From sequence record PP337211: a DNA stretch of 64,000 bases; one strand, written 5' to 3'. A program made the position numbers and the translations under genes. The stretch is from Escherichia phage ERS-1. Shown here in pieces: positions 4,420 through 64,000 of the stretch (the stretch's first letter is position 1; every line of letters begins with the position of its first letter). The notes beneath the pieces were generated by a model that had not been told where the DNA came from, ran no database searches, and saw only the letters and a list, made by a program, of their open reading frames with translations.

Positions 4420-4446
4420 TGGTGTTTAATCCTATGCATGATTTCT

Positions 4447-4922: not shown

Positions 4923-4927
4923 TAAAC

Positions 4928-4971: not shown

Positions 4972-5002
4972 TATGTCTAATGTCGAAGCCACACACCACC
5001 GC

Positions 5003-10503: not shown

Positions 10504-10758
10504 GTGACCGCCCGCTGGGCTGCTCCGCTCGCCTTCGCCGTCCTGCTGCTCTGGGGCCTGGCGGGGGTCTTTGCGGACTATCCTGGACCGCCCGGAGGTT
10601 TGTATCAGCTACCTGACCCGGGAGTGTGTGCGCGTGGTGAACGCGGACGGCTCCCCCGGGATCGTGTGGAGCCCTCCCGGACCGCTATGAGCGAGTGTGG
10701 GTGGAGAAGATTCTGTTTCAACCCTGAGAAAGGAGTTGCGCTACGTCTTTTTGGGTAG
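10504..10758 (+). CDS. secreted or lipoprotein-like hypothetical protein (signal-peptide-like N-terminus)
   Basis: GTG start after GACGAGG; MTARWAAPLAFAVLLLWGLAGVFADYPGPPGG looks like a signal peptide with AxA-type cleavage site. Confidence 0.35.
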   Translation: MTARWAAPLAFAVLLLWGLAGVFADYPGPPGGLYQLPDPGVCARGERGRLPRDRVEPSRTAMSECGWRRFCFNPEKGVALRLFG

Positions 10759-16410: not shown

Positions 16411-16968
16411 ATGAGTGATGACAACACGATGGACAGGCGTGATGATCGACCTGGAGACGATGGCGACCGGCCCCAGCGCCGGGGTCGTTTGTCGGGGCCA
16501 TCCGTCGTTCAACTGCCGAACCGGATTGGTGAAGCCGGACCTGTTCGAGGTGGACGTGGACCTTCACGCCGACGCTGGGCGGCGAGGTCGATGCTTCCGG
16601 CGGTCGGTCTGGCGGGACCAGGTGGACCCTGCCCAGCGCTGGCCGAAGGCGATGCGCTCCGCGCTGACCGACCTCGCCCTCCTGGTCGGGGTACCCGGAC
16701 CGAAGCGGGTCTGGGCCGGGGCTGTCCTTTGACGTTGCCATCTAGGGTTACTATCGCCGGCGGGCGTCCCGATCCCCTGGCATACTCCGCGCTGATGCTG
16801 ACACCCGAACCGTGTATGACCTGGCGAAGGAGCGGGGCTGGTCGAAGCCGGAGGGGGAACGGGGCCGTTCTGCCGCCTGGAGGACTGCCGCTGCCGTACC
16901 CTTGCCGTCCATCAGCGCCCTGAACGTCCTCCGGGGCAGCCTGAAGGAGAACCCGGTAATTGGCTGAC
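16411..16968 (+). pseudogene. DnaQ/DEDD-like 3'-5' exonuclease, frame-disrupted
   Basis: AAGGAGA RBS then ATG 16411; Exo I-like motif VMIDLETMATGPSAGVV (16439-16489) sits in a different frame from the start codon; protein-like C-terminus ...SISALNVLRGSLKENPVIG ending at 16968 in a third frame. Confidence 0.35.
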
Positions 16969-19900
16969 GAATCGACTTGAAGGATGGAATTCCCTTCCCC
17001 CCTTGCGGACCGCGAAGTGGCCCGGATCGCGGAGGAGGCGGCGACACACCGCCCGGGAGCCGGCGACTGTGACCTGTGTGGCGAATGGAGCGGGAGGCTG
17101 GTGGAGGAGTCTGTGCGCCCTGTCGGACCGCCCGGGCTTTGCCGGTGAATCGAAGAAGTTGTATGAGGGCTCTACTTCTTGCAGGCCCCCCGCCACTCTC
17201 CTTCGTTGCAGGTACCGGCCTGAAAATGGAGAACGGCGATGACCTGGATTTCCGCCTCCAACCCGACACCCGCGCCACTGCCCCGCTTCGTGGCCGGTTT
17301 CACTGTCCTCGCCTCTGGCGGTAGCCCTCCGCGACCCTCGGCTACGCCTTCAGCCGCTAGAGCGTGGTTCCTGGCCTGGTCCGGCGACTCTGCATGGCAT
17401 GCTGGAGGATGTACCGTGAAGGACGTGTACTGGAACCTGGCCCACTACCCCCGTCTGGAAGGCTCGGGTGCCCCCGCCCTCGCCCTCCGAAGTTCCTGGC
17501 GTCATCCCCGACCGTCGCCCGAATTGAAGCCCTGGGTGGAGTTCCGCGCCCCGAAGGCTGCGCCGGTGGTGAAGGCGGGAGCGCTTCTGCCAGGGGCGCC
17601 GGGTGCCCGCCCCGCGCCCGGGCTGGCCAGTCCTGATGGAGCTGGCAAGCCCTGGTCCGCCGCTGCTCCATGGTCCAGCCCCGCGAAAGTCCGGTCGGCG
17701 TAGGAAGGACGGAACCGATCCTCGCCGGCGAGCGCCTGGGCTCGCCGCGGGCCTTCGACCACCACCCGGGTTGAAGGAGCCCGCGTGTATCTGGAAGGAT
17801 GAGCCGCCGCTGGAGGGAAAGGCCCGAGGAAGATGGAAGCGAGTACCAGAAGCGGGAGGGCTCCGGCCCTCCCCCCCGCGGGTCGAAAAAAGTTGTCTGC
17901 TGGGCTGACCTTCTTCGGGTTGGGTCACTTTTTGTTAGGCCGTAGAAATGGAGAACTGAAATCAGCCGACTCCCGCCCAGGTCGCTGCCCGCGAACTGAT
18001 CGCAGGCTGGGGCTCGCCTCGCTGGGCGATGTCCGGGTTGTCAAGCCGCTGACCCTCCCGGCCGGAGTACCTCCGCGGCCCGCTCCTTCGCCGGTGACCG
18101 CGCGATCCGCCGGATCGGTGCCGGTCCTCCGCGGGACGTCCCCCTGGCAGCTGATCGGCTTCGGACCTCGCGGAGGTCGCCGGGCCCTCTGGAAGTCGGC
18201 TGCCGTTGACCGGGAGGGCCTGGCTCTCCCCCTCCCGGAGAAGGAGCCCCTTGTGAACCGGTGGCCGCCTTCCCCACCCCCTCCCCTCGTCCCCACTCCT
18301 GTTCATCGGAGTCGGGGAGCTGGGGCTGCTCTTCACCCTCCGCGAGACGGAGCTGAAGGCCGTCCCGGGTCCTGGCCCACGGACGCGGTGGTGAATGGCG
18401 TGTATCGGGGTCCTCCGAGGTCCGTGCTCCCGTGAAGAACCTGAGCCGGGACCGACGAAGCCTTCGAGAAGGCCCGGAAGCCTCTGCAGCGTATGGGCCG
18501 AGCCGGTGACCTCCCGCGACTCCCTGCGCGAGGAAATGAACGCGATTCACCGCGTGACGCTGCGGAGCTGGAGCGCCGGGAGCGCGAGCGGAAGGAGCGC
18601 GAGGACCGCCTGGGCCGCGGAACGGGCCGCGGAGGAGGAGGAGAAGCGCCTGTACCTTCCTGGGCTGGAAGTTTGCCTTCGGACCTACGCGTGGCGAGTT
18701 CCCAGGCCCCGCGGGCTGGCCTCCGCCGGTCGATCCAGCCTCCGGACTTCGAGGAAGGTGGCCTGATGCGCCTGACCGCCCGTGAGGTCGCCCGCCGGGT
18801 CCCTGTCCTCGCCCGCCGAAGCCGAAGCCCGACCTGTACGTGGGCGAGCCGAGAGTGCATCACCTTCGACGTGACCGTGGTGCGCCGTACCCTTGCGCCC
18901 GTGACGCCTGGAACGGCTACGGTATCGAGACGGTCCAGGCGTTGCGATGATCGACCGCGCGACCGGGGCCTGCCTCGTGTCCAAGTCCGGGGCCTTCTAC
19001 GCGGAGGAAGGCGAGGAGCTGAAGATCAAGGCCACCGTGAAGGAGCACGCGGAGCACCGCGGCCAGGCCCAGACCGTTGTCCAGCGGGTCGCGGTGCTGG
19101 AGGACTACCGGATGCGCCGGGAACCTCTCAGCTCGCGGTTGTTCGGAGGGCGAGCTGTACGCCGCCTGCACCAGGACCCCCTCACCGGGGCTCTTACGCA
19201 GTGGCCTTTGCCGGAGCCCTCGGGGAGGCCCGGCCGTCGCCCTCGTTGACTGGACTCGCTGAAGTGGACGGGTCACCTGCCCGGGCTTACCGCGTGGGTG
19301 ATTAAGCTTCGCGCTTGGCGGACGCCCTCGTGCGATCCTTCGGAGCTGACCGGGCGTTCCGCGCGTCGGGCGATGAGTTCGCCGTTATGGGTGATAGCCG
19401 TGAACGTCTGCCCGGGCTCGCTTCTCCGCGCGAGGGTCCGGGTTTCTGCTTCGGACGGGGATCGGAGGCGGCGGAGGCGGACGGCGACCTGGCGCGTCGA
19501 GGGGCGGAGGGGGAGCGGTCCGGCCTTCGGGGCCGCGCGAGGGCTCCTCGACCGCCTTGGGGTCGATCATCGACCTCCGGGGGGCTTTACTTCTTCGGAG
19601 GCCCCCCGTCACACTTCTTTGTCGGGCGGTCCGGACCCGGAGAACGGCTGCCGGGGCGGCTGGGCATTTACTGTCTCCCCTGTCCAGGCCACGGACCTGC
19701 GCCTCCAAAGTTCTCCCGACCTTCTTTCGGGCGTGACTTCCTCCGGGTCCAAACGGCCCTGGACCGCCTCCTTAGATGGCGGAGGAGTAGGACGGTGCGC
19801 ACTGGTTCATGTACAAGCTGTCCAACGGTGCGACTGACCTGGCCCCGGCGATCACCGACCGGAAGCTGCGACTGACCGTGGACACCAACGGCTACGGGCG

Positions 19901-20634
19901 AGGTCAGCGGAGACGCCGCGGGCCTGATCGCCTGCCTGTTCGTGTCAACGCCCTCGCTGGAATACCCGCAGCGCCAGGACTACGTGGACCTGTCTACAAG
20001 CCGCGCGACTTCGCCTTCGACCGCCGCAGGCTGAGGAAATCACCGCTGCCTTCGACCTGATACCCTCGGCGCAGCCGACCGCCCCAACTTCCCGGCAAGG
20101 AGCAGATGACCGGTAGACCGCCCCCGGACCAAACCTCCTGCAGGAGACTTTCGTTGGTGTCGCCCCTGACGTGACCGCCCGCCGCGTCCGTCCTGGGCGA
20201 CTTCAGGTGCGCCTCGGCGACCGAGTCGATGCCGGCTTCCGTCCTTCGCCCCGGGCGGAAGTCGGACCCGGCGACCCTGAGCTGGAACCCGTTGGCCCGT
20301 TCACGCTGAAATGGCGACCCCGCAGGGCCTGCACATCCCGGCCGAGGTCCGGCTGGAACATCGCCTTGCCCGCCACTTCGACCGCCTGCTTACGATGGTC
20401 GGTGGACCCCCTCTGTAAGGTAGAAAAGGAGCCCGCGATGGCTGGGCGAGCCACCGCCGTTGGGAGAACCCTCCGTCACCTCCGCGACTGCGCGGAGCCG
20501 CGCACCCCCTGGGCGGATCCGGAAGCCCGCGCCCGGGCGTCCTCCTCCAACTCGCCGTGGAGGCGGCTGGAGGAGGTCGGGTGACGATCACCGCCGCGAG
20601 CTGGACGAAGCCCGAGCAACGCGGGAGGTGAGTG

Positions 20635-20907
20635 ATGAGCGGACGCTACAAGGTCCTGGCCGGGTCCCAGTGCCCGGCCACCGCCGCTCGACTACACCGT
20701 GGTGGATGTCCGGAGCCTTTGCCCGCGGGCGCCTCGGGTGCCGTCGATGCGACTGCGAGACGTTTGGCGAGGAGGAAGCCCTGCGGTTGCCCGCGCCCGA
20801 ACGCGGCGATCGGCGAGTTGAAGTGTACCCTCGCCCGGGCCGCTCGCCTGTTCGAGGAGGCCCTGCCGAAGTCGTGCTGGGCGCCAGCGCCCTGGACGCC
20901 GGCGTGA
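20635..20907 (+). CDS. hypothetical Cys-rich protein; start with GGGAGGTG RBS
   Basis: GGGAGGTGAGTG-ATG at 20621-20637; MSGRYKVLAGSQCPATAARLH...; C-terminal part protein-like (PCGCPRPNAAIGELKCTLARAARLFEEALPKSCWAPAPW). Confidence 0.4.
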   Translation: MSGRYKVLAGSQCPATAARLHRGGCPEPLPAGASGAVDATARRLARRKPCGCPRPNAAIGELKCTLARAARLFEEALPKSCWAPAPWTPA

Positions 20908-21825
20908 TCCGCTGCTTGGTCAGGTCCCGGCGAAGTCCGCGCGGCCCTGAAGGCTTGCGCCCTTGTGCGGAGGGGAAGTGCCCCGTACGGCCCCGAACCG
21001 CCCCTGGGCGAAGGAGGGCGGAGCATCACCCCCGGGCGCTGACGCCCTGATCCTGAGTTCGTGTCGACCTGGGCGGCTAGGGGTCAAGCGGCTGAAGGAC
21101 CGCCGGGCGAAGATCGCCGGCTGTTCGCCCCGGGACGGACGGAAGGCGACCGCCTGGCCCTGTACGTCGCCGGGCGGGCGACCCTCCCGCTTCGACGCGG
21201 CCCGCTGCGCCGGTACGCGCCCGCCGCCCGTTGGACCTCTGCCGCGTGACGACCTAGGTAACGGCTCCGCCCGCGTGGTGCCGAAGTCGTAACGAGACCG
21301 GAGAAGGAGAAGCGGCGAAGCGGGGAATCTACCGCGGCCCGATCCCTGCCCGATTCGGCAGACCTGCGCTGCTGCGCGAGGCGACCCGGCCATGCTCGTG
21401 GCGGTTCGATGACGGAGCCTGACCCGGAGCGGCGACCCGATCCCGGCGGAGAAGCCCGAAGGCCCGCCCGCGGACGCCCTGGGCTACGGCTCGCGCCTTC
21501 CCGGCGGAGGACTTCGAGGAGAACCGGACCTGCCCGACCTGCGAGGCGACCGGCTTTCGGCGGCTCGCGCCGGGTCCTGACCGCTGTACCTTCTGCGACG
21601 GGACGGCAAGGCGGGAACCCGCCGGAGGAGGACGGCGAGGCTGCCGGGGTGCCCCGCCCGACCGCCCGCGCGCGGTCGGTGACCTCCTCCGTGGGCATGA
21701 CCCGCGACGGCTACCGGCTCGCCGGGTGGTTGTCGAGTGCGAGGACGGCGCTGTGGCGAACTCCGCCAGGAACGAAGCCGGGACTGATCCTGGGTCCGGC
21801 TCCCGGTGATCCCGGGAGGTGAACG

Positions 21826-22490
21826 ATGTCCCTGGCTGAGTTCGAGGACCGCGTGGCGGATCCCCTGCCTCATCGTGGTCACCACCGGGAGCCCTGACGT
21901 GCCCGCGAAGTGCTGCGGCCCGCCTGAAGATCGCTACCCGGCGGAAGGCGGATGCGGTGAATGGGAAGTCCGCGACCGCCGCGGACGCCCGCCCCCTGGC
22001 CTGGAGCGGGGTATGACGGAGGCGGAGCGCGAAGCGGTTGACCTGGCCGTGTTCGATCCGTGCGGAGGACCGGCGATGACCTGCGTGCGCGTCCCCGGGG
22101 GTCGCTTGCCGTCGCCCTCTTCCGGCTCCGCCTCGCGGACGGCTCCTGCGCGTCGGAGCCCTGCCACCTGCGGGCTGCCTCTTCCGCGACCGGCGGCTGG
22201 CGTCTTCACACGAGTGGTGGAGGACCCCTGCGATCTGCGCCGCCCTGGACTGGTCCTTCAACGAGGAAAACGGGCCGACCGCCCTCGCCGCGGGATGCCC
22301 CGCCGGGTGGTCCCGCGGTGCCGACTGGTCGAGTCGGAGGCCGAAGGCTGCGGAAAACCGGCGGGCTCCCCCTCCTTCTCCCTTCCACCGGGTGCGCTTG
22401 GGTTACGGGAGTGCGCTTGGGTTCGGCTCCAAAAGTATGAAGGGGTGCGTGGCGGGAAGTTGTAGCCGTCTGGGGTTCCTGCCTTGCGCT
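21826..22490 (+). pseudogene. hypothetical protein, last gene before island 1; frame-disrupted
   Basis: GGGAGGTGAACG-ATG at 21813-21828 (MSLAEFEDRVADPL then stop); protein-like text resumes in other frames (GMTEAEREAVDLAVFDPCGGPAMTCVRVPGGRL; ICAALDWSFNEENGPTALAAGCPAGW); stop at 22488-22490. Confidence 0.35.
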
Positions 22491-22597
22491 TAGGTTACTT
22501 GGGATTCTTACCTGAAACAAATTTGCCCAGGGTTGACCCGGCGGACCGGCCTGAGAATCCTTGTTGAGGCTTCCGGCTGTCCGAGGGCTTCCTGGGG

Positions 22598-22700
22598 CTA
22601 AGGTAAGTAAGTTAAGTAAGTTAAGTATCTATCTATCTATCTATCTATAAAGGGCTGTTTTATATGGCCTTTTTGCCCGCTTGACTTTTTACTTTTTCGG
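22598..22700 (+). promoter_or_regulatory. island 1: AAGGTAAGTAAGTTAAGTAAGTTAAG (stops in all three frames) + (TATC)6 microsatellite + TATAAA + TTGACT + T-rich run
   Basis: Directly read; AT-rich intergenic module between the 22490 stop and the SD+GTG start at 22927; homologous inverted copy at 63420-63515. Confidence 0.7.
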
Positions 22701-22926
22701 ACGTGGAAGTGAAGCGCGACCCCTCGAACCTAAGCGGAGGACGCCGCGTGCCTGCTTGGGTCTGTTGCCCGTCGCTCCCGCGCCTCCCCCGCGGGCGAGC
22801 GCGACCCGCCCTTGGCGAACGCAGGCTTCGCCAGACTCGCGGCGAGGATGTCCTTGGGCGTGAGGCCGGGACGGATCGCCGCGTGATGCGCGATTGACGG
22901 GCGGTGCTGCCCAAGGGGGAGGTGAT

Positions 22927-24000
22927 GTGCCCATTGAGAAACTGAAGCCGAAGCCGATGGTGCCCTTGCCCTTGGATGGAAGCAGTACCTGGAGTTGTTC
23001 CGCACGTCCCGACCTGGGTGGGTGGAAGTACCGTGCGCGGAGGCGTGGGCGTCTCCGGCTCCGCCGTTCCACTATGCCGTTGAAGAATGACCCGGAGTTT
23101 GCCCTGGCTCTGCAGGACGCCCGCCAAGCGTGGATTGATGAGATCCTGTTGCGCGGCCCTGAAGCGGGCGCGGGACGGCGCGGCAGCGCCCGATCGGTCG
23201 GGGAAGTTCAAGGACGAAATTATTGGATGAGCGGGTGTACTGTGATTCGCTGATGGCCTTGACGCTCCGCGCCCGCCGTGCGGAGTTCGGGAGGACGGGA
23301 GGACGTGGCCTGTATCACTGCCCTCGGCCCGGTGGGCGCCGATCGTCCCGGGCCCCGGCGTCGACCGGACGACTGGGAATTGTTTGGGACCTCGCCCGCG
23401 GGACCGTGGGCCGTCCGACCGGGAGGGCGATGTTCGCCTGGTCCCAAGCGGGCAGGCGGTTGCCATCGCCGCCCGCCCGGACTACCCGATCGAGCGGCGC
23501 GAGGCGGAGCCCGGCGAGCTGCGGGCACCACGTGGACCCGGAGACGGGAAGGAGTCGGAGGCGACCTGGTGCGGGTACGGGTTGCAGCTCGCCTTCCTCG
23601 GCGTCCCGATCTTCGAGGTGCTGTATGAGGGGACGCGCGGCCCGGGCAAGACCGACTGCCGATGGACTTCCTCCAGCACGTGGGGAAGGGCTACGGTTGG
23701 AGCGGCGGGGTCCCCGTTCCGTCTGGCAGGGACCCCCGCTGTCGGACGTGATCAGACACAAAACCAACAAGTGGTTCAAGCGTTTCTTCCCGGCTAAGTA
23801 CAGGCAAGGTGGGTTGGCGACCTTCCCGGCACGGCGAGGAGCTGCTGCTGTGTCGGCGGTCGCCGGAGGATTATTGGAACTACCCACGGCCACGTGCCCG
23901 TGGATTGGCTGGGAAGAACTCTTGGGCTGGGCCTGACAGCGCCACCGTTGCGACGTCCTGCCGCCGCTCCCAAGCCGGGGATGCCCCGCCGCGACCCGGG
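22927..24000 (+). pseudogene. P-loop NTPase-containing coding region (copy 1), candidate packaging/terminase-like ATPase, frame-disrupted
   Basis: GGGGGAGGTG RBS then GTG 22927; Walker A GTRGPGKTD at 23630-23656; further protein-like segments in shifting frames (MPLKNDPEFALALQDARQAWIDEILL; DFLQHVGKGYGW; SDVIRHKTNKWFKRFFPAKYRQGG). Confidence 0.35.
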
Positions 24001-25688
24001 CGACCGGCCCCACGGCCCCGCCCCTGGCTGGGTCAGGCCCGCTCCCGCCTCCCCCGTTGCGCGGTCGGGTGATCCTGGACGCGATGCGAGACGGCGAGCG
24101 CGAACCGCCCCGGGTCGCCTTCCCGGTTCCTTTCCCATGAGAACCGGGTTGCTCCTCGCTGACCCGGAGGGCCTGGTATTCGAGCCGCGGCCCGGAACCC
24201 CTCCGACTCGCCGCCTGGCTCCACGGCTCCTGCAGGTTGTTTGCGGGAGGATGTTGTACGAGGCTTGCACCGCGGGACGCACCGCGGCGCCCTCCGTCCC
24301 GCTGTCGGTGATCCCGAAGCGGTGGAAGATCGACCTGCGGCTTCCACCGGGCCGGAGCCCTTTGCCGTCCTGTGGTGGGCGGAGTCGAATGGGAGCCGTT
24401 CGAGCGGAATGGCCGCGTGTACGGAAGGTGCGGGGGCGATCTGTACCTGATCCTGTAGCGGGTACGGCTGGAACGGGAACGCGAGCAGGGCGTCCTGCGG
24501 CTCGCCTCGGAGGTCGCCCAGTGGGTGAAGGACCGGGAGGAGGATTGGGCGCTGGAAGGTCGGGTCAGCCCTGGCCCCCGCGACCTTCTCCTCACGTGGA
24601 GGTATGGGGCCTGGATTGCTGTGGAGGCGGAGAGAGGGTGTGCGCCTGGACGCCCGCGGGAGGCTGGGCTCGCGGGTGGGCTGGGAGGGGTTGGCTGTCG
24701 GAGGGCGCTGCCTCCGGCGGCGGGGACCGCGCCAGGTCCCTGGGCTGTTCGGTTTTTTCGACCCGTGCTGGTGTCGTCCAGACGGTCCCGCGCTGCCCCG
24801 CGATGAGGTGTACCTGGGATGACGTGAAGGCGGAGGCGGAGGACCGGTTGGTGACGCGACCGCTACCGCGTGCGGGGTAAGCTGCGTGGTGCGGTGGTGG
24901 CCCGCAGAGGCTCGGCCGGGTCCTCGCCTTCGGGCGAGAATCCGCGAACCTGGAGAACCGACGGCCGGCGAGACGGCAGCCCTGCCGACCTGCGGGGCGT
25001 ATTAACCGCGCTCCCGCGCTGGCCCACGCTCCAGACGCCGCCTGGGCGGGACCGAAGGGCGCGCGAGGCGGGCGAGACGTACCTACCCCGCCCTCGGAGG
25101 AGACGGCAGGGTGGGCTATCGGGAGCGCCTGGCCTCCGCCGCTCCTCCTCGGCGGTTGAACCTGGGCGCCTGGACCTGCCCTGCAGCGGAGCCCTTTGCC
25201 AGCCGATCAAGCCGGCCAGGACGTGCCCGGAGGCGATCCAGGAGATGATCCTGCCTGACGTGGACCTCCTGGGGCTGCCCACGCGTTCGCCCGTCCTGTG
25301 GTTCCGCCAGCCTATCCGGTGAGGCCCTGGCCTCCTCGTCCAGACCGCCTCGCCCGGCCCCGCGGAGGATGGCCTACCCGGACCTGGCGGATGACCGCCG
25401 GGAGGGCCTGCGCCCTGACTGGGTGATGATCCAAGCCGGAGGCGCCCGCTGTTGGCCCGGTCGGAGGTGATCAAATGGGGCCCGAGTCCTCTGCGTGCTG
25501 CTGTCCAAGTTACGAGGCGGAGGCAGGACGGCTTCGCGCAGGCTTGGGAGCGCTGTCCGCGTCCTGGAGCTGGGCCTTGTCCCGGCTCTGGCAGCCGGTG
25601 AGAAGTTGGTGGTCCCGCAAGGAGGAGTGGGTGCTGGCGGATGAGCGGGCCATGGGGCTGAACCACGTCCCTGTGGTTGCCTTTACGC

Positions 25689-25719
25689 CAGACGACTACA
25701 AACGGAATCTACAGCACCT
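25689..25719 (-). repeat. right 31-bp inverted repeat of block A (reverse complement reads aggtgctgtagattccgtttgtagtcgtctg)
   Basis: 30/31 match to 4928-4958 in inverted orientation. Confidence 0.8.
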
Positions 25720-25725
25720 GAGTAT

Positions 25726-25771
25726 GTATTGCTAAGGTTAGAGGGAAACACGATAGAATCCAACAGCACCT
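25726..25771 (-). repeat. partial J-unit, variant b, inverted (aggtgctgt-tggattctatcgtgtttccctc-taaccttagcaatac on the minus strand)
   Basis: Shares the aggtgctgt head and taaccttagcaatac tail with the J-units; middle resembles the 26008-26040 variant. Confidence 0.7.
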
Positions 25772-25996
25772 AAAAAGGTTCAACTTTTTACTAAATAATA
25801 AATGTTGTAGTATCTTCTTAAAACGAAAAATTTAATTTGCTTTAAAACCTTCCCAATTTTTTTTGCCTTTTTTTAACATACGTCAGAACATGGAAGAATG
25901 GTGGCCGTTTTTTACACTGTGAAGAAACAATTTTGAACTTTTAAATGACTTCCATTTATATTGTTTTAATTTCCTTTTTTCCCGTTTGTTGTTAAT
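25772..25996. other. AT-rich spacer without a convincing ORF, phage-like (T-even-like) composition, T-runs
   Basis: Sharp GC drop between two GC-rich blocks; only very short ORFs; ends in a T11 run leading into J-unit 2. Confidence 0.4.
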
Positions 25997-26098
25997 TTTT
26001 TTTTTTAGGTGCTGTTCCGGATTTATCGTGTTTCCTGATTAACCTTAGCAATACGTAACTGAACGAAGTACATAAAAACACCAATTGCTAAGGTTAAA
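25997..26098 (+). repeat. J-unit copy 2: T11 + aggtgctgt + variant spacer + 14-bp palindrome arms around a 32-nt loop
   Basis: Same architecture and arm sequence as 4678-4780. Confidence 0.8.
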
Positions 26099-26099
26099 A

Positions 26100-27216
26100 G
26101 GTTACACAAACCCTGGACAAGCAGCACCCTCCCTTTGCGGTGTTCTCCGGCTCCGCCTTGTCCTTTGAGAGCGGAGGGGTGTCGCTTGTTGATGCAGCGG
26201 GCGATGGCGAACATGGACCAGAGGTGCGGGTGGTCCGCGAGGGCTGACGGATGCTTCTCGTCCGGTCCTGGTCCCACCCTTCCGGTTGGCTCCTGGAAGA
26301 TGTTGGGTACTGCCTGTTCCAGACCGGGTCCGCGGTCGGGCCGGGGCTTCCCGGCCTTGCGGTCCGGTAGATGTCGCGCCGGGCCTTCAAGGCGGCGACG
26401 TCGTCGACGCGCGGGGTGGTCGGTGCTGGGTCCTGGTCGGGCCCTCCGATGACGGCCTTGATGTCCTTCAGGGCCGTCTCCCTGTGGATGTCGCGGACCG
26501 TCTCGCCGTCCGCCAGGGCCTCCCGCGGACCTGGGCGATGGCGCGGTGCTTGTTGGTCCTTCCCTGGTCCTCCTCGACGGGCTTCCCGCCGTCGCGCTCC
26601 TGGATGTGCTTTGGCTTCCAGCGGCGTGTCCTGAAGGCCGGGTCGCCGCCGTTCGCCTTCGACCGCCACCCTGCGTTGGTACCTGTAGATGGTGCTGATG
26701 GCCGCCCTCAAACCTTACCGCCTTCACGTCCGGGTCCCGCCCAACCAGCTCCGCGACGGCCTTGGCGGCGGCTTGGGTCTTGATCCGGTCTGGGCCGGCG
26801 GTGGTCGCTCCGGCGGCGGCGGTGTAGTCCCCGATGATGGCGATGCCGTCCGGGGCGTGTTGCCGGGATCGGCTTGTGGTCCGGGGACGATGACGTTGAT
26901 GACGCGGGCGGATCGCGGGCCAGGCTGCGCGGGGGTGTGCTCTGCCGGAGCCGTATGCCCTGCCCGTCGATGTACTTCGGTTGGTTTTCCAGTTTGGTTG
27001 AAAACGGCGGAGCCGGAGCCCCCGCCTGGGGTTGCTGTTGGACCCTGCGCGATCGGATGATCTTGCGCTCGCCGCCGTCCTCCTCCGGCGGGGCTGGTTT
27101 CCCGACCTCTGAGTCTGGGCGAGCGGCCTTCGCCGCCCCAGGTTCCGAACCGCGGGCTCGGCTCGTCGTCGTCCGCGCGGTGGAGACCTGGCCGGTGGGG
27201 GGCGGCTTCCCCTCAC
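26100..27216 (-). pseudogene. hypothetical protein, frame-disrupted
   Basis: Protein-like segments in two minus frames (DGIAIIGDYTAAAGATTAGPDRIKTQAAAKAVAELVGRDPDVKAV; EALADGETVRDIHRETALKDIKAVIGGPDQDPAPTTPRVDDVAALKARRDIYRTARPG). Confidence 0.3.
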
Positions 27217-27521
27217 CTCCTGGAGGGCTGGCCCGTCGGTCCGGGTGAAGGTTCGGGACGCGCTGGCCGTGGCGGCCCCGCGGCGATCATTTCACGCCTT
27301 CCAAAGCCAGTGCCGGTTCGCCGGTTCCGGGCTTCCCGCGGCGGTCCAGGCGTGTCGTCGCGTAGGTCGTTGCCGCGCTCCGTCGCCGGTTCGGTACCTG
27401 CCGGCGGGCTTCGACCCGGCACGGCTCGCGATGGTCTTTCCGGGCTCCGGCCTGGTTCTCCGCGGGCTGTCGGCGAAGGCTTTGGTGCGCCCCGGGCTGA
27501 ACCGCTTTTGGAGGTGTTCGA

Positions 27522-28655
27522 TCATTGCTGGAGCCCTGCTGTAGCCCGCTTCCCGAATTTTGCGATTGCGTGGTCGTTGCCGACCGCGGCCTGGCGCTCG
27601 AAGCTGTGGCGGATGTCGTCGTGGGTGACGATCCCCGGGATTACCGGATTGACCTGATGGAGGTGTACATGCCCGACGCGCGCTCGCGATTTCGTCGGGA
27701 TGGTCCTGAAGGCTGATGGCCCCGGAGGCTCGTGCCGTTGTGGTCGTTGCCGGTGTTCGGTGACTTCTGGGCGTAGCTGTAGGGGTTCCGCTTCGGAGGT
27801 CGATGGCCGGATGGGGTAGCAGACGGCCGGGAAGAAGACTGGGCCGGGAGTTGGCGAAGGCTTCCGCCCCCGCCTGGGTGTTATGGGGCGCTTTGAAACG
27901 GTGAAGGGGTCCGTGAAGCTGGAGAAGCAGCCCGCGGCGGAGGTCCGGACTTCGAGAGGCATTTTGCGGACCTGCTCGCCGTAGTTCACCGGGACGCTGA
28001 TGAGGCCGGTGCCGCGGTAGCCCCGGAACCCGCTGTCGACGTAGAAGGCGCAACCCACTGTAGCCCCATAAGGCTCCGTCAGGATCGCCTCGCTGCAGGG
28101 GCGGGCGCGGGAGCCTCGCTTGTCGTTGTGCTTGTCCTGGCACCTGCCCTGAAGGGGCTTGGCGTTCGGGATGCGGATGTGCGGGAGGTAGGTGACGACC
28201 CTTTGAAGCCGGTAGGCCCAGCCCTTCACCTCCTTCTTGTCGTCTCTCCTTCGCGTTGCGGACCGTCCCCCCTGCCTTGCCGGAACTTCGCGCGCTGGCG
28301 CCGGTCCTGCACCCTTCTCCCCCATCGGGCCCGGAACTCCCGTTGGTTCGGTCCGGCGGCGAAATACTTGTAAGCCTCCTGAGCGGCTTCGCCGGTGCCT
28401 TCCTGCCCTTGCCTGCGTGGTCCGGTCATTCTCCTTCAACTGTGAAAAAAGTCTTGAGCGCCTTACCCGGAAGAAGTAAGCGGCGTTAATCGGCCCCGGC
28501 TCGCCACGTTGTTTCCGGGAGGTCCCCTGGCCTTCGCTCCTCCGAATGCCGGCGACCGGCGAACTGCCGGAACCGCGCGGCGACCCTTCCGCGTCATATC
28601 CTCCAGGTTGTCCTTTTGGGACCCGAGGGAACAAATGCTCGGGGTTGACGCACAA
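27522..28655 (-). pseudogene. hypothetical protein with possible metal-dependent hydrolase motifs
   Basis: Long protein-like stretch (KGWAYRLQRVVTYLPHIRIPNAKPLQGRCQDKHNDKRG...) and GHVHLH; family not identified. Confidence 0.25.
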
Positions 28656-30700
28656 CGGTCGGTCGCAGCGATGAACTTACGTTATCGCCGTCGGGATGGA
28701 CCGTCGAACCTGGCCGAAGGATAGCCGATGAGTGCCGTCTTAGTCTCATGTTGGCGTGCTGCTTATCATTGACTGGGAGCCGTTGGTTGGTCCCGTCTCC
28801 GGTCTTGATAGTGGGCGTCGAAGTAGGTGAGCCGGTCCGTCGATTACCCCATGTTCGGAATGATGGGGCGTGGGATGGACGAAGCCCGTTGAGCGGTTGC
28901 TGCGCTTTAGCTTTTGGGTTGGTAACGGGTTGGGGGAACGGGGCGGAGGCGTCCCGGGCTGCGTCCGCGTACCCGTAGCCCTCGTCGTATTACCGGTCAC
29001 CCGGTTGCCGGGTGCCTGGCCGCGGCCTTCCCCATGTACTCCCGGGTGGCGTCCTGGCTCTGCAGTATCCTTGTGGAGGATGACGTTGTAGTTGCGGGCC
29101 CGCCCCCTCCAAGCCCTCTTCAGTGCCCGGCGGCGACCGTCCCCGAGCTGAGACTGATGACCGGGGTCCCGGAGTCCGGGAGGTGCGGGGCGGTGCGGAC
29201 GGCCTCCGCGGGCGTTCTCCGTGATCGACTCCGGGAGCTTCGGGTGTTCGGCTGTAGCTGTCGTGGGAGTTCTCCCGTGCTTCTTGGCCGGACGGGGATC
29301 GCGGAGCGGCCCGCCGGCATGTCCAGGTCCGCCCCGAGCTGGCGAGCGCGCCCGCCGCCGGACGCGCGGGGCGTCCGCGGCCCCGTCGCGCTTGAAGCGG
29401 GGCCAGTAGTCCACGGCCTGTTTCCCAGCTGCTGGCAGGCGACCGCCCGGCCCGCCTTCGAGCGGTACGTGTCCGGCTGCCGATGGTGGTTCTTGTGGTC
29501 TCGATATGGGCGAGGCCCCGCCAATCTCGCTGAAGGACGGCACCGGGAGCGGGTGCTCTCCCCGCTTCAGGATCGGACCCCGTTGAGCGGGCGTTTGACC
29601 GGGCGTCGTTGACGACGTTGCTGCCTGGCGTGGTCGAGGAAGGCCCGTGCGGCGGAGGGCGGCCTGCCCGGTTCGAGCCCGCCGTCGATTTCCCGGATGT
29701 TGTTCCGTGGGTAGTGGCCGTTCGACGGTGGGGATTTTCCATTTACACAGCACCGTTCTACCTCTGCATGTTCGGCGGGTGGTTGCCCGGGTGGGCGGGG
29801 CGAGGTCCGCGAACCGCTGGTTTGCAGTCCGCCACCCGGACGCTTGATCGCCTCGCGCTTGGGCTTCGCGTTCTCCGGGTACTGTGAGCCTCGCGCTGCT
29901 CCGCGTTGCGGCCTTCTCCGGGTCCTTGAAGGTTAAGGCGGCGTCGTGCCGAAGTCGGCCGCACTTCACCGGTTCGACCTGTCCGCGATCTTGAAGCCGA
30001 TCCGGTCGGACCGAAGCCGTCGTGCTCCTGGGCGCGGGCGGAGACGGTGCGGAAGGGCAGGCGCTCCTCCGTCGCCCGGGCTCTCCCGTGCCCCGCCTCC
30101 GGGCGGTCGCCGTAGCGGGCCTGGAGGGAGGTTGCGGAGTCACGGTATCGGCCTGTAGCGGCGGTGCTCGCGTCCCCGGGGGCCTGTGCTCCCCCGGCGG
30201 GCGTCTCCTCCTCGTCGCGGGCCGCGACCTTCCCGGTGCGGCAACTCCTCGCCCTCCTCCACCAGGAAGGAGGCCACCCGGCGTGGTAGCTCCAGAATAA
30301 CCGAGGAGCCCGGGAGCTGCGGCACGGAGAAGTCCCCCGCCTCCTCCGCCCGAACCAGGGCCGTGTACACGGGTCCAGATCGCCGGTGGTGATCAGGTGT
30401 CGGCCGGGGTCGTCTCGATGTCCGGTCGCGGGGCAAGTTCTGCTCGGCTTTTTCTGGGTATGCGTGACTGATTTTCCCGGCTCAGGTCTTTGCGATGTCC
30501 GGTTCAGAGAATTGGCGACGAAGGAAGGCTCCGGCGGGACTTTTCGTCACGTGATACGGGAATGGACTTGTCTGGCGCCGCCGTCGCCGTCCTCCGTGAT
30601 CCCTGGTGAACCCGGCAGGAGCTTGAAGGGCTCCGTTCTGTATCCCCGCTCCGCCGGGCACCTGCCCGGCGGGGGTGCGGTGTGCGCTCCGAGGCTCCCG

Positions 30701-31949: not shown

Positions 31950-33400
31950 CGTTCTTTCGGGCACATTTCTCTGGGTGACGTTCTGTTTGAGGTCCGCTCC
32001 GGCACCGGGATGGCCCTTTGAGGGCGTCCCGGTTGGAGTACCCGGTGGTGATCTGGGTGATCACCGCCTTTGGCTTGTCTTTGCACCTCCGTCCGGTGGC
32101 CGGTCGATGCGGTCGGCTTGCCGGCTCCTCCGCCGGGCGTCCGCTTCGGCTCGCCGCCGTCATCCTTCACCCGAGGATGCCCACCGCTTCCCGCCAGCGG
32201 AAGGTCGTGCAGCCCTTCGCCCCGCCTTCCCGGCGCCGCTGTCTCGAAGTCCTCCCGCTGATGTCGGAGCGCCGCTCGCTCGCCGCGGAATCGACCCGCT
32301 GGGCGGCGACGGTCGGGCGGCGACGTGTTCCTGGACGGTGACGCGGGAGCGCCTTGCCGCGGACCCGACGCGGTCCGCAGTCCTCCCTCCCCCGCGCCGC
32401 GGGCCGCTGAACTCGATTGCGGTGCGGTCGAAGCTGTAGGCGAGTCGCTTCGGTCCCGGAGCTGACGTTGTCGGCCCAGGCTGACGGTCCCGGTCGGGGC
32501 GATGGAAGTGAGGTGGGAGTTGCGGATGCCGTATTTGGCGATGGCGTCCTGCGTCCTCGCGGAGGGTCTTGATGAACTGGCCCTGAAGGTACTTGTCCTT
32601 GTCGAACTTCGGGAAGGAGCCCTTGACCTTGGCGATGTGGGCGCTGGCCGTAGGGCTGCGCCTGCGTGTTGGTACCCTTGCCTCGAAGGCGAGGAAGGCG
32701 GGCGAACCGTACGATGGCCTGGGCTTCGGCAGCGTTGGCCAGGCCGGTGATCCCGAGGCCCTTGCGGCGCTTGTCCTTGGCTTCCTGCTTCTGCGCGGCG
32801 GTAGATCGCGCGATCGTACCGTTGTGCCATTGCGTGGACCTTCCTGCGGGATGTCCTCGCGGAACTGGTCCCGTCGAAGGCGTAGTGGCCCGCCCCGTCC
32901 TCTAAGATGTACTTTACCTGTTGAAGGAGCCGGTGGTGCCGTAGGGCGGTAGGGTTGTCGTCCGTGGGGTTCGTGGCGGCGATGGTCTTGGGTTGGGCGT
33001 CGTTTGCGGTTGATCGCGTCGATGAACTTACGTCCCCGGCTCTGCCGGGTTGCCGGCTCGTGGCGATTGCGTCCTGGCGCCCGGGCGTCCGCTTCGCGGT
33101 AGGTCCGGCCCTCGAAGGTGAGGGGAACGGCTCGCCGGAGGCGACGCCGGCGCTGTCGGTGATGGCGACGGAGACGTTGAAGCCTGTTGCTTCTGGTCCG
33201 CTGAAGGGGATGATGGCCGCCGCTTCTCGGGGCTCCCTCCGGGAGTCGGTCCTCGAGGTCCGAGCGGCTGAACGTCCTTCCCGGGTCGCTTGGCGTGACG
33301 AACTCCTCGATGTCGGGATGGTCCGCGCATCACCCCCCCCGGGCTCCGCGGCGATGGCCGGCAGGAGGCGACGCACTGGGATCGCGTCGAAGATGTGCAT
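31950..33400 (-). pseudogene. ribonucleotide reductase large subunit (class I or II, NrdA/E/J-like), frame-disrupted
   Basis: Minus-strand motif AKYGIRNSHLTSIAPTGTVSLG at 32474-32533, then ADNVSSGTEA and RLAYSFDRTAIEF in shifted frames, resembling the conserved YGIRNSLL..APT...EP...Y.RR...GEF region of class I R1 proteins as I remember it; gene bounds uncertain. Confidence 0.45.
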
Positions 33401-33799
33401 GAAGCTGATGGGGCCGGAGGAGTGGGACTGGAGCTTGCGGATCAGGTCGCCGCGAGGACGGAGGGTGCTGAAGTCAGGCCGATCCCGCCGCCCTTCCCGG
33501 TTGTGGCCTGCGGCTTCCGCGGCCCGGATTGACGGAGCCTTCGCCGTCCGCTTGAAGCTGTCGTTGATCGTCCCGGAGACGTAGCCTGTCCGTATGGCGT
33601 GACCTGGCGAGTGGAGCCCGTCGCGGACCGGATGCGGCCCGCCGGGAGGAAGTGGTACGCCTGCGAGGGCGTCCCGGAAGTCCGCGAAGTGCTGGTCATT
33701 GTCCTTCAGGGCCGCGGCGATCCGGTTCGTGGCCTCGCGGAAGGACTCGCCGCTGCCGCGGTACTTCTGGGCGTGTAGTTCTGTGAGTAGGGTACTTGA

Positions 33800-35650
33800 G
33801 GACCTGTCGGTGAGTCTCCTCGAAGGGTTGAGGGCTTTCTATCGTGTTGTTGCTCCTGTTCTTGGGCTAGGCGGTGAACGAGGTCGATGCGTTCCGCGGC
33901 CCGGGTAATGGCGGTGTACAACCCTTTCCTTCCGGCTCCTTCCCGTACCCCGTCCGGGGTGGCAGGACGTTGTTCCTTTGGGAGCCCTGCGACTTGTGGA
34001 CGGTGAGCGCACCTGCCCTGTCGAACTCCTCCGCGCCTTCCGCTCCCAGACTTCGGCTTGTTGCCGTGGAAGTAGTGGGGGTGGGCGCTGACTTCGACCT
34101 TCGCGCCGTCCTCGCCTTCGATGTCCTTGATGGAGTCGCTGTTGAAGATCGTGTCACGGCGGACCTTCCGGCTGGCCGTCGAGCAGGCCCGCCCTTCGTG
34201 GTCGTGAGGGGCCTTTGCCGTCGCCTTCCTGGGTGGGCGCGTCCGCCCGAGGAGTTCCCGGGACGTCGTCGCTCGTGATTCTCGTGGCGTTCCTGCCGGG
34301 TCAGGAGCTGGTCGGTGGACAGTACCATGTCCCGGAGTTCTTCGCGTGGTGGCGGCCATAGGAATCACGCGGCTGGCACCGTAGTCGCCGGGGGCGGAGC
34401 ACGCGGCCCTCGCGGACCTCCTTGGAGGTCCGGTCATCGGGTTGTCCTGGGCCTGGCGGTGAATCTCCGCGAGGACGTCGGGCTTGTCTTGAAGCAAGGG
34501 CGCTGCCGGGCGGGAGCTGTCCGGGATCGCCCGGGTGAGGACCGGTGCCGAAGTGAGGCCCTCCCCCCCGCCTGCCCGGACGGCGGAAGAATTCGCTTGC
34601 CGAGCGCGGCCCTCCAACCTGGGCGACTCCGCGTTGAGCTGGAAGGTCGGGCGGGCGAGGTTGATCTGCTCCGCCTTGATCGCCGGATCGACTTCTCCGG
34701 TCAGGGTTTCCGGGACGGGCTTGCGAGTGAGTAGCCGCGCCCGCTCCGCTTGGAGTTCCCTGGCGCTGCTGCGACTTGTCCTTGGGCGTGTAGATGAAGC
34801 TGCGAATGGTAATTCTCCGTTGGTCGCCCCGGACTTCGTGAGGACGTGAGCGGCCTTGCCGGTGTAGGCGGCGAAGGTGCCGGGACCTTTGACGGTCGCG
34901 GCGAGGTGTTTGGCCGGGTGGCCTGCCGGTTCCGGCGTACCCGGCGAGCTGGAAGGCAGGGCTTGTCCCGGGTCTTGACGTTGCCTGTCCTGGTTGGCGC
35001 GGTCTGCTGTTGGCGTACTCCGCGATGACCGTTCTCCGTTTCTGATAAGAAGGGGGGCCCTTGAAGGCCCCTGAAGGCACGCCGAGGGGGCGGGCCGTCC
35101 GGGCTGGTCCTCCCGGGTATCGGGTTGGCTGCCGCCGCCTGCGCCTGGGCTTCTCGTCGCGGCAGCCGGAGCTGGCGACGGGCGGCGCGGGCCTTGCCCT
35201 GCTGATCGTCGATTCGATGTCGGCGGACTGGAACAGCGGGTCATCGGGCAGGAGGCGAGCCGTGGGCGTTCTCTCGCCGTCGAAGGCGATGGTGTCCTGT
35301 TGAAGAAGGGCCCTTGTCGTCTGTCGGCTCGAGGCGGTAGCGGTGGGCGGCTGCGGAGCCGGGATGCGGCGACCGTCCCGGAATCCTGGATGGTCTTGGC
35401 CTTGTACCCTCTGCCCTTGTACTTCTTGATCTTCGTGGAGCCGAAGGCCCGACCGCTTCCCAGGCGTTGCCGCTGTTGCGCGTGCCGGCCCCGGTGGTGT
35501 AAGGTTCCGATTGGCTCGTTGCCGTCCGGGGGTGCTGCAGCTGCCGTGCTCGAGGACGCGGCCTTGGCGGTTCGCCGGGTCGCCGTCGACTCTGGGATGC
35601 CCGTTGCACCGCCGCCGCATCGCGGGGCTTCCACCACCGCACGTGCTGGG
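33800..35650 (-). pseudogene. RecD/TraA-like superfamily 1 DNA helicase, frame-disrupted
   Basis: Motif I LAGYAGTG (34926-34949), Ia FAAYTGKAAHVL (~34838-34870), V LTVHKSQGSQ (33975-34007), VI GLYTAITRA (33901-33921) in correct order and spacing but three different frames. Confidence 0.6.
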
Positions 35651-36640
35651 TGGTCGCCGGGACGAAGGCAATGCCCTTCTTGCCGTCCCAGACTTCGCCG
35701 GTCACCGGTGTTCGTGTACCCCGCCTGGCGGTGCTTGTCGTTCTCCTGGAGCTGCGGGCTGAGGGCCTGAAGAATCTGGAGGAACGGGATGCTGTAAGTT
35801 GTCGCTGGTCCGGCTTCTCGAAACCCGCGCCCAGCCGTGCTGTGCCCTGGCCTCGCCGCGGCGGTGTTGTCTTTGTCGCCAGCGGTGGTCTTGCTATCGG
35901 TCTTGGCCCGGCGGCGCTGGCTCCTTCGGTTCGATGTGAGCGGGGCCGATTGGGCCCCCGGCTCGAATAGCCCTGCCGTCTGCCGGTGTACCCGCCATCG
36001 CCGCGGGGCGGTTGTAGGAAGGCCCGGGCCCGCCTCCTTCTGGGTCGTCACTTGGACGCTGACCACGGACCCCGAAAGGTTCTGGGACTTCCTGCCTTCG
36101 CTGTGGCCTCGCCGGCACGAAAGTGGTAGGGTTGAAGGATGGACGCTGGCGTTTGTCGTCGCCCGAACTCGTCCGCGAGACGCTGGCGGTTCGCTGCCTT
36201 CCCGCCTCGCCCTTGCCAAGGCGACTGGCGACCCGGCGCTCGATCAATCGCGGGCGTGGCCGTGCTCGCTCAGCTCAGGCGAAGGCGAGCGGGGCCTTGG
36301 CCTTCGGATGCTGGCGCCATCGTCTGCGGAATCCTTGATCTTCGGCTGGCGGTGGTCTTGGAGCTGCGGTATGCCGATCTGGTCCTCAAGTTTGGTACCC
36401 GGCGCTCCGCGATGTCGCGGAGTTCTTCGCGGGCCTTGTTGAGCTGGGCTTCGAGGCTGCGACCTTCGACGGGCGGCCTGTTGTTTGGCCCGCTGAGCCA
36501 GTTGGCGTGGCTTGACTCCGGCGGCTCGAGGTCTGTCTGGACGCGTTTTCCTTAGGCGTGGTTCTCCGTTTCTTCGGCGAGGGTATTTGTATCGCTGAAG
36601 AAGTATAGCCGGTTGTTGCAAGAAGTAGAGGCCCAGGCGT

Positions 36641-37171
36641 TCACCGTGACCAGCGTTGGTCCTTGCCGCTCCGCTTGGAGGGATACGTCCCTTCGGTTGG
36701 TGTCCGCGGCGATGGCGACGGCGAACCCGATTGGGACTGGATCGCCCTTTGAAGGTGGTCCCCCGGCCCCGAAGCTTCGGCCGCTTCTCTTCGGTTTGGA
36801 ATGATTCGGCTCCGGCGGAAGGGGCCGCGGTCGGGCGGCGGGGCACCGGCCTTCCAACTCCTCCGCCGGCGAGGTTGAATTGGGCTCGAACCGCTGCTGT
36901 CGCGGTCCCTGCGGTGTTGGTCGGTGGCGGCTGACGGCTGGTAGTCTTGTGGTCCTGTCTTCCAGGCGGTCGCCGGTGATCTGGCTCGTCCCCGTTGAAT
37001 TTGTTCCTCAACGTTTTCCACCTTTCCTTCCCCTCGCAGTTCTCTGCCCTTGAGGTCGATGTACCCGCCGTTGTCGGTCTGTCCGATCCGGCGGGCGCGG
37101 CTCCTCCGACCAAGGCGGTCATTGAGCTTGAAGCTGTTGGAATAATAAATGACCGTCTTGGCCGCGGTCAA
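36641..37171 (-). pseudogene. hypothetical protein; N-terminal 60 codons protein-like in a locally lower-GC stretch
   Basis: ORF track translation MTAAKTVIYYSNSFKLNDRLGRRSRARRIGQTDNGGYIDLKGRELRGEGKVENVEEQ... Confidence 0.3.
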
Positions 37172-63190: not shown

Positions 63191-63419
63191 TTGCGGTTCG
63201 CTCCCCCTTCGGCGTGTACTGTTCGTCGGTTGTGCTGCGTGGCCACCCGTCCCGGCCTCGGTCGGGCTTTCCCTCGCCGCGAGTATAGCGTGAGCTTGGG
63301 CAATAGCCAAGGGCGGGTCGCGCCCGCCCGCGGGGAGAGGTCGAGGAGCGTGTGGGCGGATTGCCGGCAGGCGCGCAGCGTCCTCCGCTTAGGTTCGAGG
63401 GCTGCGTTCCACTTTCGTC

Positions 63420-63515
63420 CGAAAAAAAAAAAGTCAAGCGGTAAAGGTTAAAAACCTGCCCTTTATATACAGACAGACAGATAGATACTTAACTCACTAA
63501 CTCACTTACCTTAAC
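63420..63515 (-). promoter_or_regulatory. island 3 (inverted copy of island 1): GTTAAGGTAAGTGAGTTAGTGAGTTAAG + (TATC)2(TGTC)3 + TATATAAA + TTGACT + T11 on the minus strand
   Basis: Reverse complement aligns base-for-base with 22560-22700, with substitutions and a different microsatellite composition. Confidence 0.7.
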
Positions 63516-64000
63516 CCCCTGACAGCCCTTCGGACAGCCGAAACCCTCAGTGGTGATTCTCTGGGCGGTCCGCCGGGTCGATTTGTCGGCAGAATTTATT
63601 TCAGGGTAAAGATCGAAGGTAACCTAGCTAAGGACGTGAACCCCAGACGGTTTGACCTCCCGCCTCGCCTCGCTTTCTCTTTTCGGAGCTGAACCCAGTG
63701 CATTTCGTAACCCGGGAGGTTCCCGGTCACGGAAGTGGAGAAGGAGGAGGGAGCCCCGCCGGTTTTCCGCTGGCCTTCGGCCTCCTGTAGCGAAGTCGGT
63801 CGATTGCCGCCCGGCGGGGCATTCAGGGGCGGGCTGCCCAGGTGTCGACCTGGATGGAAGGGGGTGAGGAGCCGCCCCGGCGGGCCTCCAGGTGGAGGGG
63901 AGGGGGTGGTTGTTGACGTAGGTGGAGCGGGGCGGTGGAATTGAGGGCGGCGTCCTCCGGGTCCCACGCCGCCCTCGACGGCCTGTCATCCCAGGTCGGT

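Follow-up and report, generated by a model that had tools for sequence, protein, structure and literature searches.

Four SF1 helicase motifs spread over different reading frames raise the question of whether a helicase gene has decayed at this locus or whether its frame was broken in some other way. The initial annotation of the window, by which we mean the whole 64,000-nucleotide stretch of DNA analyzed here, had assigned positions 33800-35650 to the relic of a RecD/TraA-like SF1 helicase within a GC-rich block, and had taken the frame-hopping to be real. On that account, the locus would be a genuine pseudogene, part of a GC-rich mobile element lying in an AT-rich genome and decayed by real insertions and deletions. 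The three frames over which the motifs are distributed, and the roughly 24 frameshifts required to restore the protein, are what such a history would lead one to expect.

The helicase gene and its neighbors

We located all four motifs as peptide matches in frame translations of the minus strand. Motif I (region LAGYAGTG) lies at 34925-34948, motif Ia (AAYTGKAA) at 34849-34872, motif V (TVHKSQGSQ) at 33978-34004 and motif VI (LYTAITRA) at 33898-33921. The motifs stand in the canonical order and occupy three frames, as first described, and such a series is far beyond chance.

To align a protein across broken frames, we used our own frameshift-tolerant protein-to-DNA dynamic program, with the 397-amino acid Dda-like helicase of Pseudomonas phage BL8 (XQW41823.1) as the query. 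The alignment ran along the minus strand over 33871-35024, where 287 of the 397 residues were identical. At the protein level, it required 24 net frame-changing events and 8 codon deletions, and 52 frame-changing indel events were counted at the nucleotide level. The initial annotation had left its helicase assignment to a frameshift-tolerant search of this kind, and the search was positive: the frame-corrected helicase of the window scored 33.1 bits against the Pfam profile UvrD_C_2 (cut-off 27.4), the C-terminal domain in which motifs V and VI lie, and narrowly missed the cut-off of 27 for AAA_30, an N-terminal ATPase domain, with 26.6 bits. The intact BL8 orthologue reached 72.4 bits for AAA_30 and 52.5 bits for UvrD_C_2, also matched AAA_19, and scored 396 bits against PHROG 325, "Dda-like helicase". 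This places the gene among the Dda-like helicases of Yuavirus phages, of which it is an ordinary representative, and upholds the proposal that the region codes for a RecD/Dda-type SF1 helicase.

The extent of the gene was narrower than first proposed. Projection from BL8 23301-24494 placed this error-laden Yuavirus copy of a Dda/RecD-like SF1B helicase gene at 33867-35023 on the minus strand, and both ends of the interval 33800-35650 belong to neighboring genes. Upstream, positions 35120-35650 form the 3' part of a homologue of BL8 CDS0029, a hypothetical protein gene projected to 35120-35910 (minus strand). Downstream, positions 33800-33845 are covered by the start of the gene for the large subunit of ribonucleoside-diphosphate reductase, the homologue of BL8 CDS0031 (32082-33845, minus strand by BL8 projection), which is equally frame-broken. 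In Yuavirus phages such as BL8, the Dda-like helicase gene is flanked in the same way by the CDS0029 homologue and the gene for the reductase large subunit.

Compared with that helicase, the copy in the window retains recognizable motifs I, Ia, III, V and VI but has no intact open reading frame (ORF). An uninterrupted ORF of about 400 amino acids was absent from the helicase region of the window, whereas the ORF is intact in BL8 and in other Yuaviruses. The ATG start is miscalled, with ATGTGG reading GCGG; ahead of the TAG stop, the ATGATG is corrupted, and a +1 shift puts the stop out of frame. After the motif I peptide, the window has R where BL8 has the Walker-A lysine, so that GTGKTT appears as GTGR\T, and motif II has become ASEF instead of VVDEY; BL8 keeps both Walker A and motif II intact. 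We attributed the failure of these two motifs to read errors rather than to a defect of the gene, and all of the defects listed here are attributable to base-calling errors of the kind described below.

By homology, the intact gene would encode a replication or recombination helicase of about 397 amino acids. The nearest solved relatives of the BL8 protein, to which it shows significant sequence similarity, are the SF1B helicases RecD2 of D. radiodurans (PDB 3e1s/3gp8; E = 1e-16), E. coli RecD (1w36_D; 4e-6) and T4 Dda (3upu; 4e-6), and by analogy with Dda, RecD2 and RecD the enzyme should translocate and carry out ATP-dependent DNA unwinding in the 5'-to-3' direction. In contrast to these relatives, the BL8 orthologue is shorter, at 397 amino acids, and is a phage protein outside any RecBCD complex.

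Conjugative relaxase-helicases of the TraA/TraI type have SF1 helicase core motifs in common with this protein. In the 397-amino acid BL8 orthologue, however, Pfam gave no hit to a relaxase domain (MobA/TrwC) and identified helicase domains only, and the neighbors of the gene are phage replication and nucleotide-metabolism genes, with no transfer operon. The missing relaxase domain and the phage replication module around the gene ruled out a TraA/TraI enzyme. Of the earlier suggestion that the GC-rich DNA derives from a replicative or conjugative element, the replicating mobile entity thus stands, in the form of a Yuavirus phage, and the conjugative element does not.

Composition of the window and its nanopore adaptors

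The GC content of the window is 33% over the first ~4.7 kb and 68% over the remainder, with an abrupt change near position 5000. The AT-rich part, at 1-4677, is a T4-like (Tequatrovirus) read that contains gp55, nrdH, nrdG and the 3' end of nrdD and is 97% identical to KFS-EC3/ime09. For the GC-rich block, the best matches were all Yuavirus-like Pseudomonas phages. As the reference we used BL8, in which the genes are intact; EKU1, the best BLAST match, was set aside because it is fragmented and itself TG-biased. Within the GC-rich block, 58 kb were collinear with BL8, and the part surrounding the helicase locus, 33000-37000, was collinear with Yuavirus genomes over its full length, at 82-83% identity and about 4% shorter. 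This similarity identifies the block as DNA of a Pseudomonas Yuavirus phage of the YuA/M6/BL8 group.

The Yuavirus DNA is present as two pieces. Piece 1, at 5042-25688, corresponds to BL8 36786 to 58417 and has the phage coding strand on the plus strand of the window. Piece 2, at 26188-64000, corresponds to BL8 32195 to 1 followed by 61409 to 54657; here the phage coding strand is the window minus strand. Despite these opposite orientations, both pieces were read along the minus strand of the window.

Oxford Nanopore (ONT) adaptor and native-barcode sequences (NB02, NB04 and NB05) were found at 4693-4975 and 25685-26127, where they separate the T4-like piece from the two Yuavirus pieces. The barcode sequences with their AAGGTTAA and CAGCACCT flanks are printed in PMC10593777, and the adaptor top strand, GGCGTCTGCTTGGGTGTTTAACCTTTTTTTTTTAATGTACTTCGTTCAGTTACGTATTGCT, in PMC11533379. 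The block at 26008-26127 (minus strand) consists of GGTGCTG, rc-NB05, TTAACCTTAGCAAT, GGTGTTTTTATGTACTTCGTTCAGTTACGTATTGCT, AAGGTTAA, NB04 and CAGCACCT. In this block, rc-NB05 is the 3' barcode of piece 2, which ends, in the read direction, with rc-NB05 and TTAACCTTAGCAAT, and GGTGTTTTTATGTACTTCGTTCAGTTACGTATTGCT is a collapsed leader joined to the top adaptor. At 25685-25772, where the short NB04 read has its other end, the sequence comprises an NB02 remnant and CAGCACCT, a partial adaptor, and AAGGTTA-NB04-CAGCACCT. The NB02 barcode that adjoins piece 1, at 25685-25716, does not have the orientation of a normal read start. At 4693-4780 (minus strand), the top adaptor together with AAGGTTAA-NB02-CAGCACCT marks the start of the T4-like read and the 3' end of the short read preceding it, the NB02 unit proper spanning 4759-4693. 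Directly after the end of piece 1, at 4928-4975 (minus strand), TGCT-AAGGTTAA-NB02-CAGCACCT forms the start of a short T4-like read. Truncated 3' adaptors and a poly-A run are also present in the window.

A well-formed AAGGTTAA-barcode-CAGCACCT unit was present at every read start except that of piece 1, and a recognizable top-strand adaptor, in the minus-strand direction, at two of the three read starts. The collapsed leader and the top-strand adaptor run 5' to 3' on the minus strand, which shows that the molecules were read by the pore along this strand. The same orientation led us to reject reading along the plus strand, where A would be the affected base and an adenine replacement such as 2-aminoadenine would come into question.

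Three sample barcodes in one sequence mean that the window is not one biological molecule. Its structure is that of unsplit or chimeric ONT reads, in which internal leader, adaptor and barcode units stand between unrelated inserts and the barcodes come from different samples; as in such reads, one short insert repeats a neighboring insert in reverse complement. The atypical barcode orientation at one junction sets the window apart from them, and nothing essential does. The junctions also speak against a decayed mobile element, which the abrupt change in GC content at ~5000 had seemed to favor: this boundary is an ONT barcode plus adaptor and not an integration site, and the AT-rich flank is T4-like phage DNA that is cut inside nrdD.

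We therefore propose, with a probability of about 0.9, that the locus is a Yuavirus helicase gene seen through a raw, uncorrected nanopore read, that its frame-hopping comes from base-calling errors and that the window is a concatenation of reads. Several native-barcoded library molecules (NB05, NB04 and NB02) would have been base-called end to end, in the 5'-to-3' direction of the window minus strand.

Independent errors in a segment present twice and at TG dinucleotides

BL8 54.7-58.4 kb was covered by both Yuavirus pieces, giving an overlap of about 3.4 kb of phage genome. In a three-way alignment, the two copies matched each other at only 61% identity and BL8 at 77% and 75%. Only 23 indel columns were common to both copies, compared with 181 and 251 in the individual copies. 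Since each copy is closer to BL8 than to the other and few indels are common to them, the damage is independent noise. At positions where the copies agree, 3.7% differed from BL8, and on this basis the underlying phage genome appears to be about 96% identical to BL8. Because only one copy of the helicase locus is present, the errors there are inferred from the overall pattern.

The disabling mutations of a pseudogene should be reproducible from one observation to the next; those in the doubly covered segment were not. With three sample barcodes inside one sequence and one segment present twice with independent errors, the frameshifts do not lie in biological DNA, and we regard a relic at this locus as extremely improbable.

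The errors were concentrated at one base of the strand that was sequenced. For pieces 1 and 2, the error rate at minus-strand T was 32% and 42%, respectively, compared with 9-11% at C. Gene orientation made no difference to this effect: the minus strand is the coding strand in piece 2 but its complement in piece 1. At isolated TG sites, the T was wrong in 70% of cases in piece 1 and 80% in piece 2, whereas at isolated TC, TT and TA sites the error remained at baseline (6-12%) in both pieces. The footprint extended to the bases around the T, with an error of 0.19-0.38 at positions -2 to +2 that fell towards baseline by about ±5. All 16 NTGN contexts were hit (50-89% error, with calls mostly C or a deletion), and across them we saw no sequence specificity beyond TG itself. 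The T4-like DNA in the same concatenated sequence behaved differently: there, the T of TG differed from the reference in 3.8%, similar to every other context. The effect therefore belongs to the Yuavirus DNA and not to the run. T4-like DNA should carry glucosyl-hmC, and the T4-like piece was cleaner than expected for such DNA.

The helicase gene follows the same pattern. Only 12 of its 61 TG dinucleotides survive, and its identity to BL8 was 94% away from TG and 65% within ±2 of TG. The substitutions were distributed evenly over the three codon positions (40/36/38). Neutral decay would likewise leave no third-position bias, which is a point in favor of a relic; the damage goes with TG on the read strand, however, and not with time or selection. 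The frame-hopping is thus real only in the character string, where errors follow the sequenced strand and TG rather than the coding strand.

TG does not explain all of the noise. Even at ≥7 nt from any TG, a baseline error of 8-10% persisted; true divergence from BL8 accounts for about 3-4% of positions within it. In addition, read-strand A in CA and TA was called G in 12-28%, even far from TG, an observation that a simple model of read-strand modification does not predict. These A-to-G calls might reflect modification of the complementary strand or a second, adenine-linked signal.

The loss of TG also accounts for the unusual reading frames. The minus strand of the helicase region is almost free of stops in any frame, with very long ORFs whose translations are implausible and of low complexity, and the window contains a spurious ORF of 837 amino acids. 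The start codons ATG, GTG and TTG and the stop codon TGA all contain TG, hence the stop-poor frames and the 837-amino acid ORF.

A biological recoding process, either U/T insertion editing or programmed frameshifting, has also been considered as the origin of a T-poor coding strand. In piece 2, the T-poor strand is indeed the coding strand, and stops are scarce in its three frames. In piece 1, however, it is the non-coding strand that is depleted of T. Moreover, the ORFs of related phages are intact and conventional for every gene, the helicase gene included, and the segment present twice has its indels at different positions in the two copies. We consider the likelihood of recoding to be vanishingly small.

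Thymidine hypermodification as a proposed source of the errors

Phage M6, a Yuavirus species, carries 5-NedU, or 5-(2-aminoethyl)-2'-deoxyuridine, in place of 30% of its T (PMC5889632); this M6 type of hypermodification is 5-HMUDK-dependent. The same modification has been predicted for YuA, MP1412, PAE1 and LKO4 (Lee 2018, PMC5889632), and genes for a PLP enzyme and a radical-SAM enzyme are markers of the M6 modification type (PMC5889632). The kinase gp54 and the radical-SAM enzyme gp53, the latter part of the thymidine hypermodification pathway, have been described for M6 (Lee 2021, PMC8989533). Restriction-resistant sites point to TG or TC as the modified dinucleotide, and the M6 kinase modifies TG (Flodman 2019, PMC6449724).

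Both marker genes of the M6 type are present in BL8 and could be projected into the window. A homologue of BL8 CDS0038, a radical-SAM (spore-photoproduct-lyase-like) gene, lies at 27036-28423 on the minus strand and is of the same enzyme kind as M6 gp53 (PMC8989533). A homologue of BL8 CDS0037, which is annotated as "threonine dehydratase" and encodes a PLP-dependent enzyme, lies at 28850-29615 on the same strand, with an approximate lower bound. Of the T's in BL8, 32.7% are followed by G and 39.2% by C, so that TG alone fits the published 30%. Overall, the TG share of T was 28-35%.

From these data, we infer that the base-caller fails where the T of TG is hypermodified. By analogy with M6, the modified T would probably be 5-NedU: the two cases have in common the genus, the marker genes, an affected fraction of T close to 30% and the preference for TG. 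They differ in that the signal is indirect here, being read from base-calling errors, and in that TC, the other site proposed by Flodman et al., shows no effect. The frame-hopping could then arise as follows. Virion DNA of the Yuavirus would carry the hypermodified thymidine, 5-NedU in M6, at 5'-TG-3', and the base-caller would miscall or drop the modified T, and often its neighbors too. T miscalls would remove about one third of the read-strand T's, and an indel would fall roughly every 20-50 nt. ATG, GTG and TTG starts and TGA stops would be erased, leaving apparent frame-hopping, a T-poor minus strand and giant spurious ORFs.

It is also conceivable that DNA modification played no role and that the read was generically poor, owing to high GC content, a bad pore or an old base-caller. 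The baseline error far from TG is compatible with such a read, as is the adaptor type, which suggests older LSK109/NBD104-era chemistry. Within the same concatenated read, however, the T4-like segment is clean and without a TG effect, and we know of no error mode of canonical DNA in which miscalls of 70-80% are limited to the T of TG while TC, TT and TA stay at baseline. The miscalls at TG also match both the published TG preference and the 30% stoichiometry of M6, and the same TG bias appears in EKU1, another Yuavirus record. A poor read without modification is therefore unlikely.

An artificial sequence, whose reads or errors were simulated by computer, would be another way to obtain the abnormal barcode orientation at one junction. 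The collapsed leader remnant, the truncated 3' adaptors and the poly-A run argue against it, as does an error footprint whose context specificity matches the published biology of M6-like phages. To our knowledge, generic simulators are not expected to yield either leader and adaptor remnants or a context-specific footprint of errors, and we consider a simulated origin very unlikely.

Under the proposed reading of base-calling errors at modified thymidines, the frame-hopping, the T-poor strand, the stop-free ORFs and the GC island of this window have one technical cause and are not biology. The TG footprint is the only by-product that is potentially useful. By analogy with M6, this footprint supports a TG-specific hypermodification of thymidine in the Yuavirus group. 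We would tentatively go further and regard the read as an accidental single-molecule map of the hypermodification, one in which TG only is modified, in all NTGN contexts, on both strands and at near-full occupancy, with TC untouched. If true, modification of TG only would be narrower than the published proposal of "TG or TC".

The same damage extends beyond this window. Among the Yuavirus records deposited as a "complete genome", at least EKU1 (PV844354.1) carries, relative to BL8, the same strand-biased damage centered on TG, and this common damage probably explains why EKU1 gave the best BLAST score. When nanopore reads come from hypermodified phage DNA and are left untrimmed, they can thus imitate decayed mobile elements, and the footprint described here suggests that base-calling errors are usable for mapping such modifications.

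Library molecules joined within the window

The window contains sequences of Oxford Nanopore adaptors and of the native barcodes NB02, NB04 and NB05, located at 4693-4780, 4928-4975, 25685-25772 and 26008-26127. Therefore, the whole window consists of several library molecules that were base-called one after the other as a single sequence, with the minus strand as the read direction. Directly after the first Yuavirus piece (5042-25688), the plus strand carries forward NB02 and CAGCACCT at 25685-25716. In the read direction, this piece is therefore preceded by AGGTGCTG-rcNB02, without leader or adaptor, and its start is no normal read start.

Two short barcoded inserts resemble T4-like DNA. The NB02-barcoded insert at 4781-4863 is a 98.8% reverse-complement copy of 2725-2807 in the T4-like piece, the two copies being set 2 kb apart within the window. 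The NB04-barcoded insert (25773-26007; 235 nt) is AT-rich and a poor T4-like read; about 68 nt of it match the helicase-loader region of gene 59 at 87%. A run of about 15 A was also observed at 4678-4692, where NB02-CAGCACCT, the A run and the T4-like insert follow one another in the read direction. This run probably arose as an artefact of base-calling or stalling.

Base-calling errors centered on TG

Across both Yuavirus pieces (5042-25688 and 26188-64000), the T of 5'-TG-3' on the minus strand showed 70-80% base-calling error, while TC, TT and TA on that strand remained at baseline. The TG-centered errors were present in all NTGN contexts, with a footprint from -2 to +2. Indirect evidence thus points to a hypermodification in this Yuavirus that is specific to TG, rather than to TG and TC. 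Errors also affected A on the minus strand of 5042-64000: the A of CA and TA was called as G in 12-28%, even where the nearest TG was over 5 nt away, and in the remaining contexts the total error at A was 7-21%, mostly 9-15%. Candidate causes of the A-to-G calls at CA and TA are a complementary-strand effect, opposite-strand information in the sequence and a second modification.

Very long stop-free ORFs were found in wrong frames, including one of 837 aa at 33706-36219 on the minus strand and others like it. They arise because TG-centered miscalls leave the read strand poor in T and remove TGA stops as well as ATG, GTG and TTG start codons.

The record of Pseudomonas phage EKU1 (GenBank PV844354.1), another Yuavirus, appears to be affected by the same nanopore artefact as the window. 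Its "complete genome" is 57,133 bp, compared with about 61.4 kb in relatives, and its RNR and helicase CDSs are split. Within the stretch concerned (10709-20845 of PV844354.1), differences from the intact Pseudomonas Yuavirus BL8 are TG-centered and strand-biased (35% vs. 10% at the T of TG).

Yuavirus and T4-like pieces compared with their references

Two oppositely oriented copies of one Yuavirus segment, corresponding to BL8 54.7-58.4 kb, are present at 22374-25688 (plus strand) and about 60200-63999 (minus strand). The segment contains the small and large terminase subunits and the start of portal. The copies share 61% identity with each other, and each is 75-77% identical to BL8. Stretches at about 28480-28860, 21033-21652 and 55944-56560 are missing from BL8 and found in other Yuaviruses; they include an HNH endonuclease located between the PLP-enzyme and radical-SAM genes, likewise present in PC1 and LKO4. 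These stretches are natural mosaicism and no artefact.

The T4-like piece (1-4677) differs from phage KFS-EC3 by substitutions at only about 2% of positions and by about 17 small indels. Given the glucosyl-hmC expected in T4-like DNA, it is surprisingly clean. Its gp55 ORF stops early relative to T4 gp55; a 1-nt deletion near 1168, among these indels, may account for this. A deletion of about 260 nt near 1738-1765 is natural.
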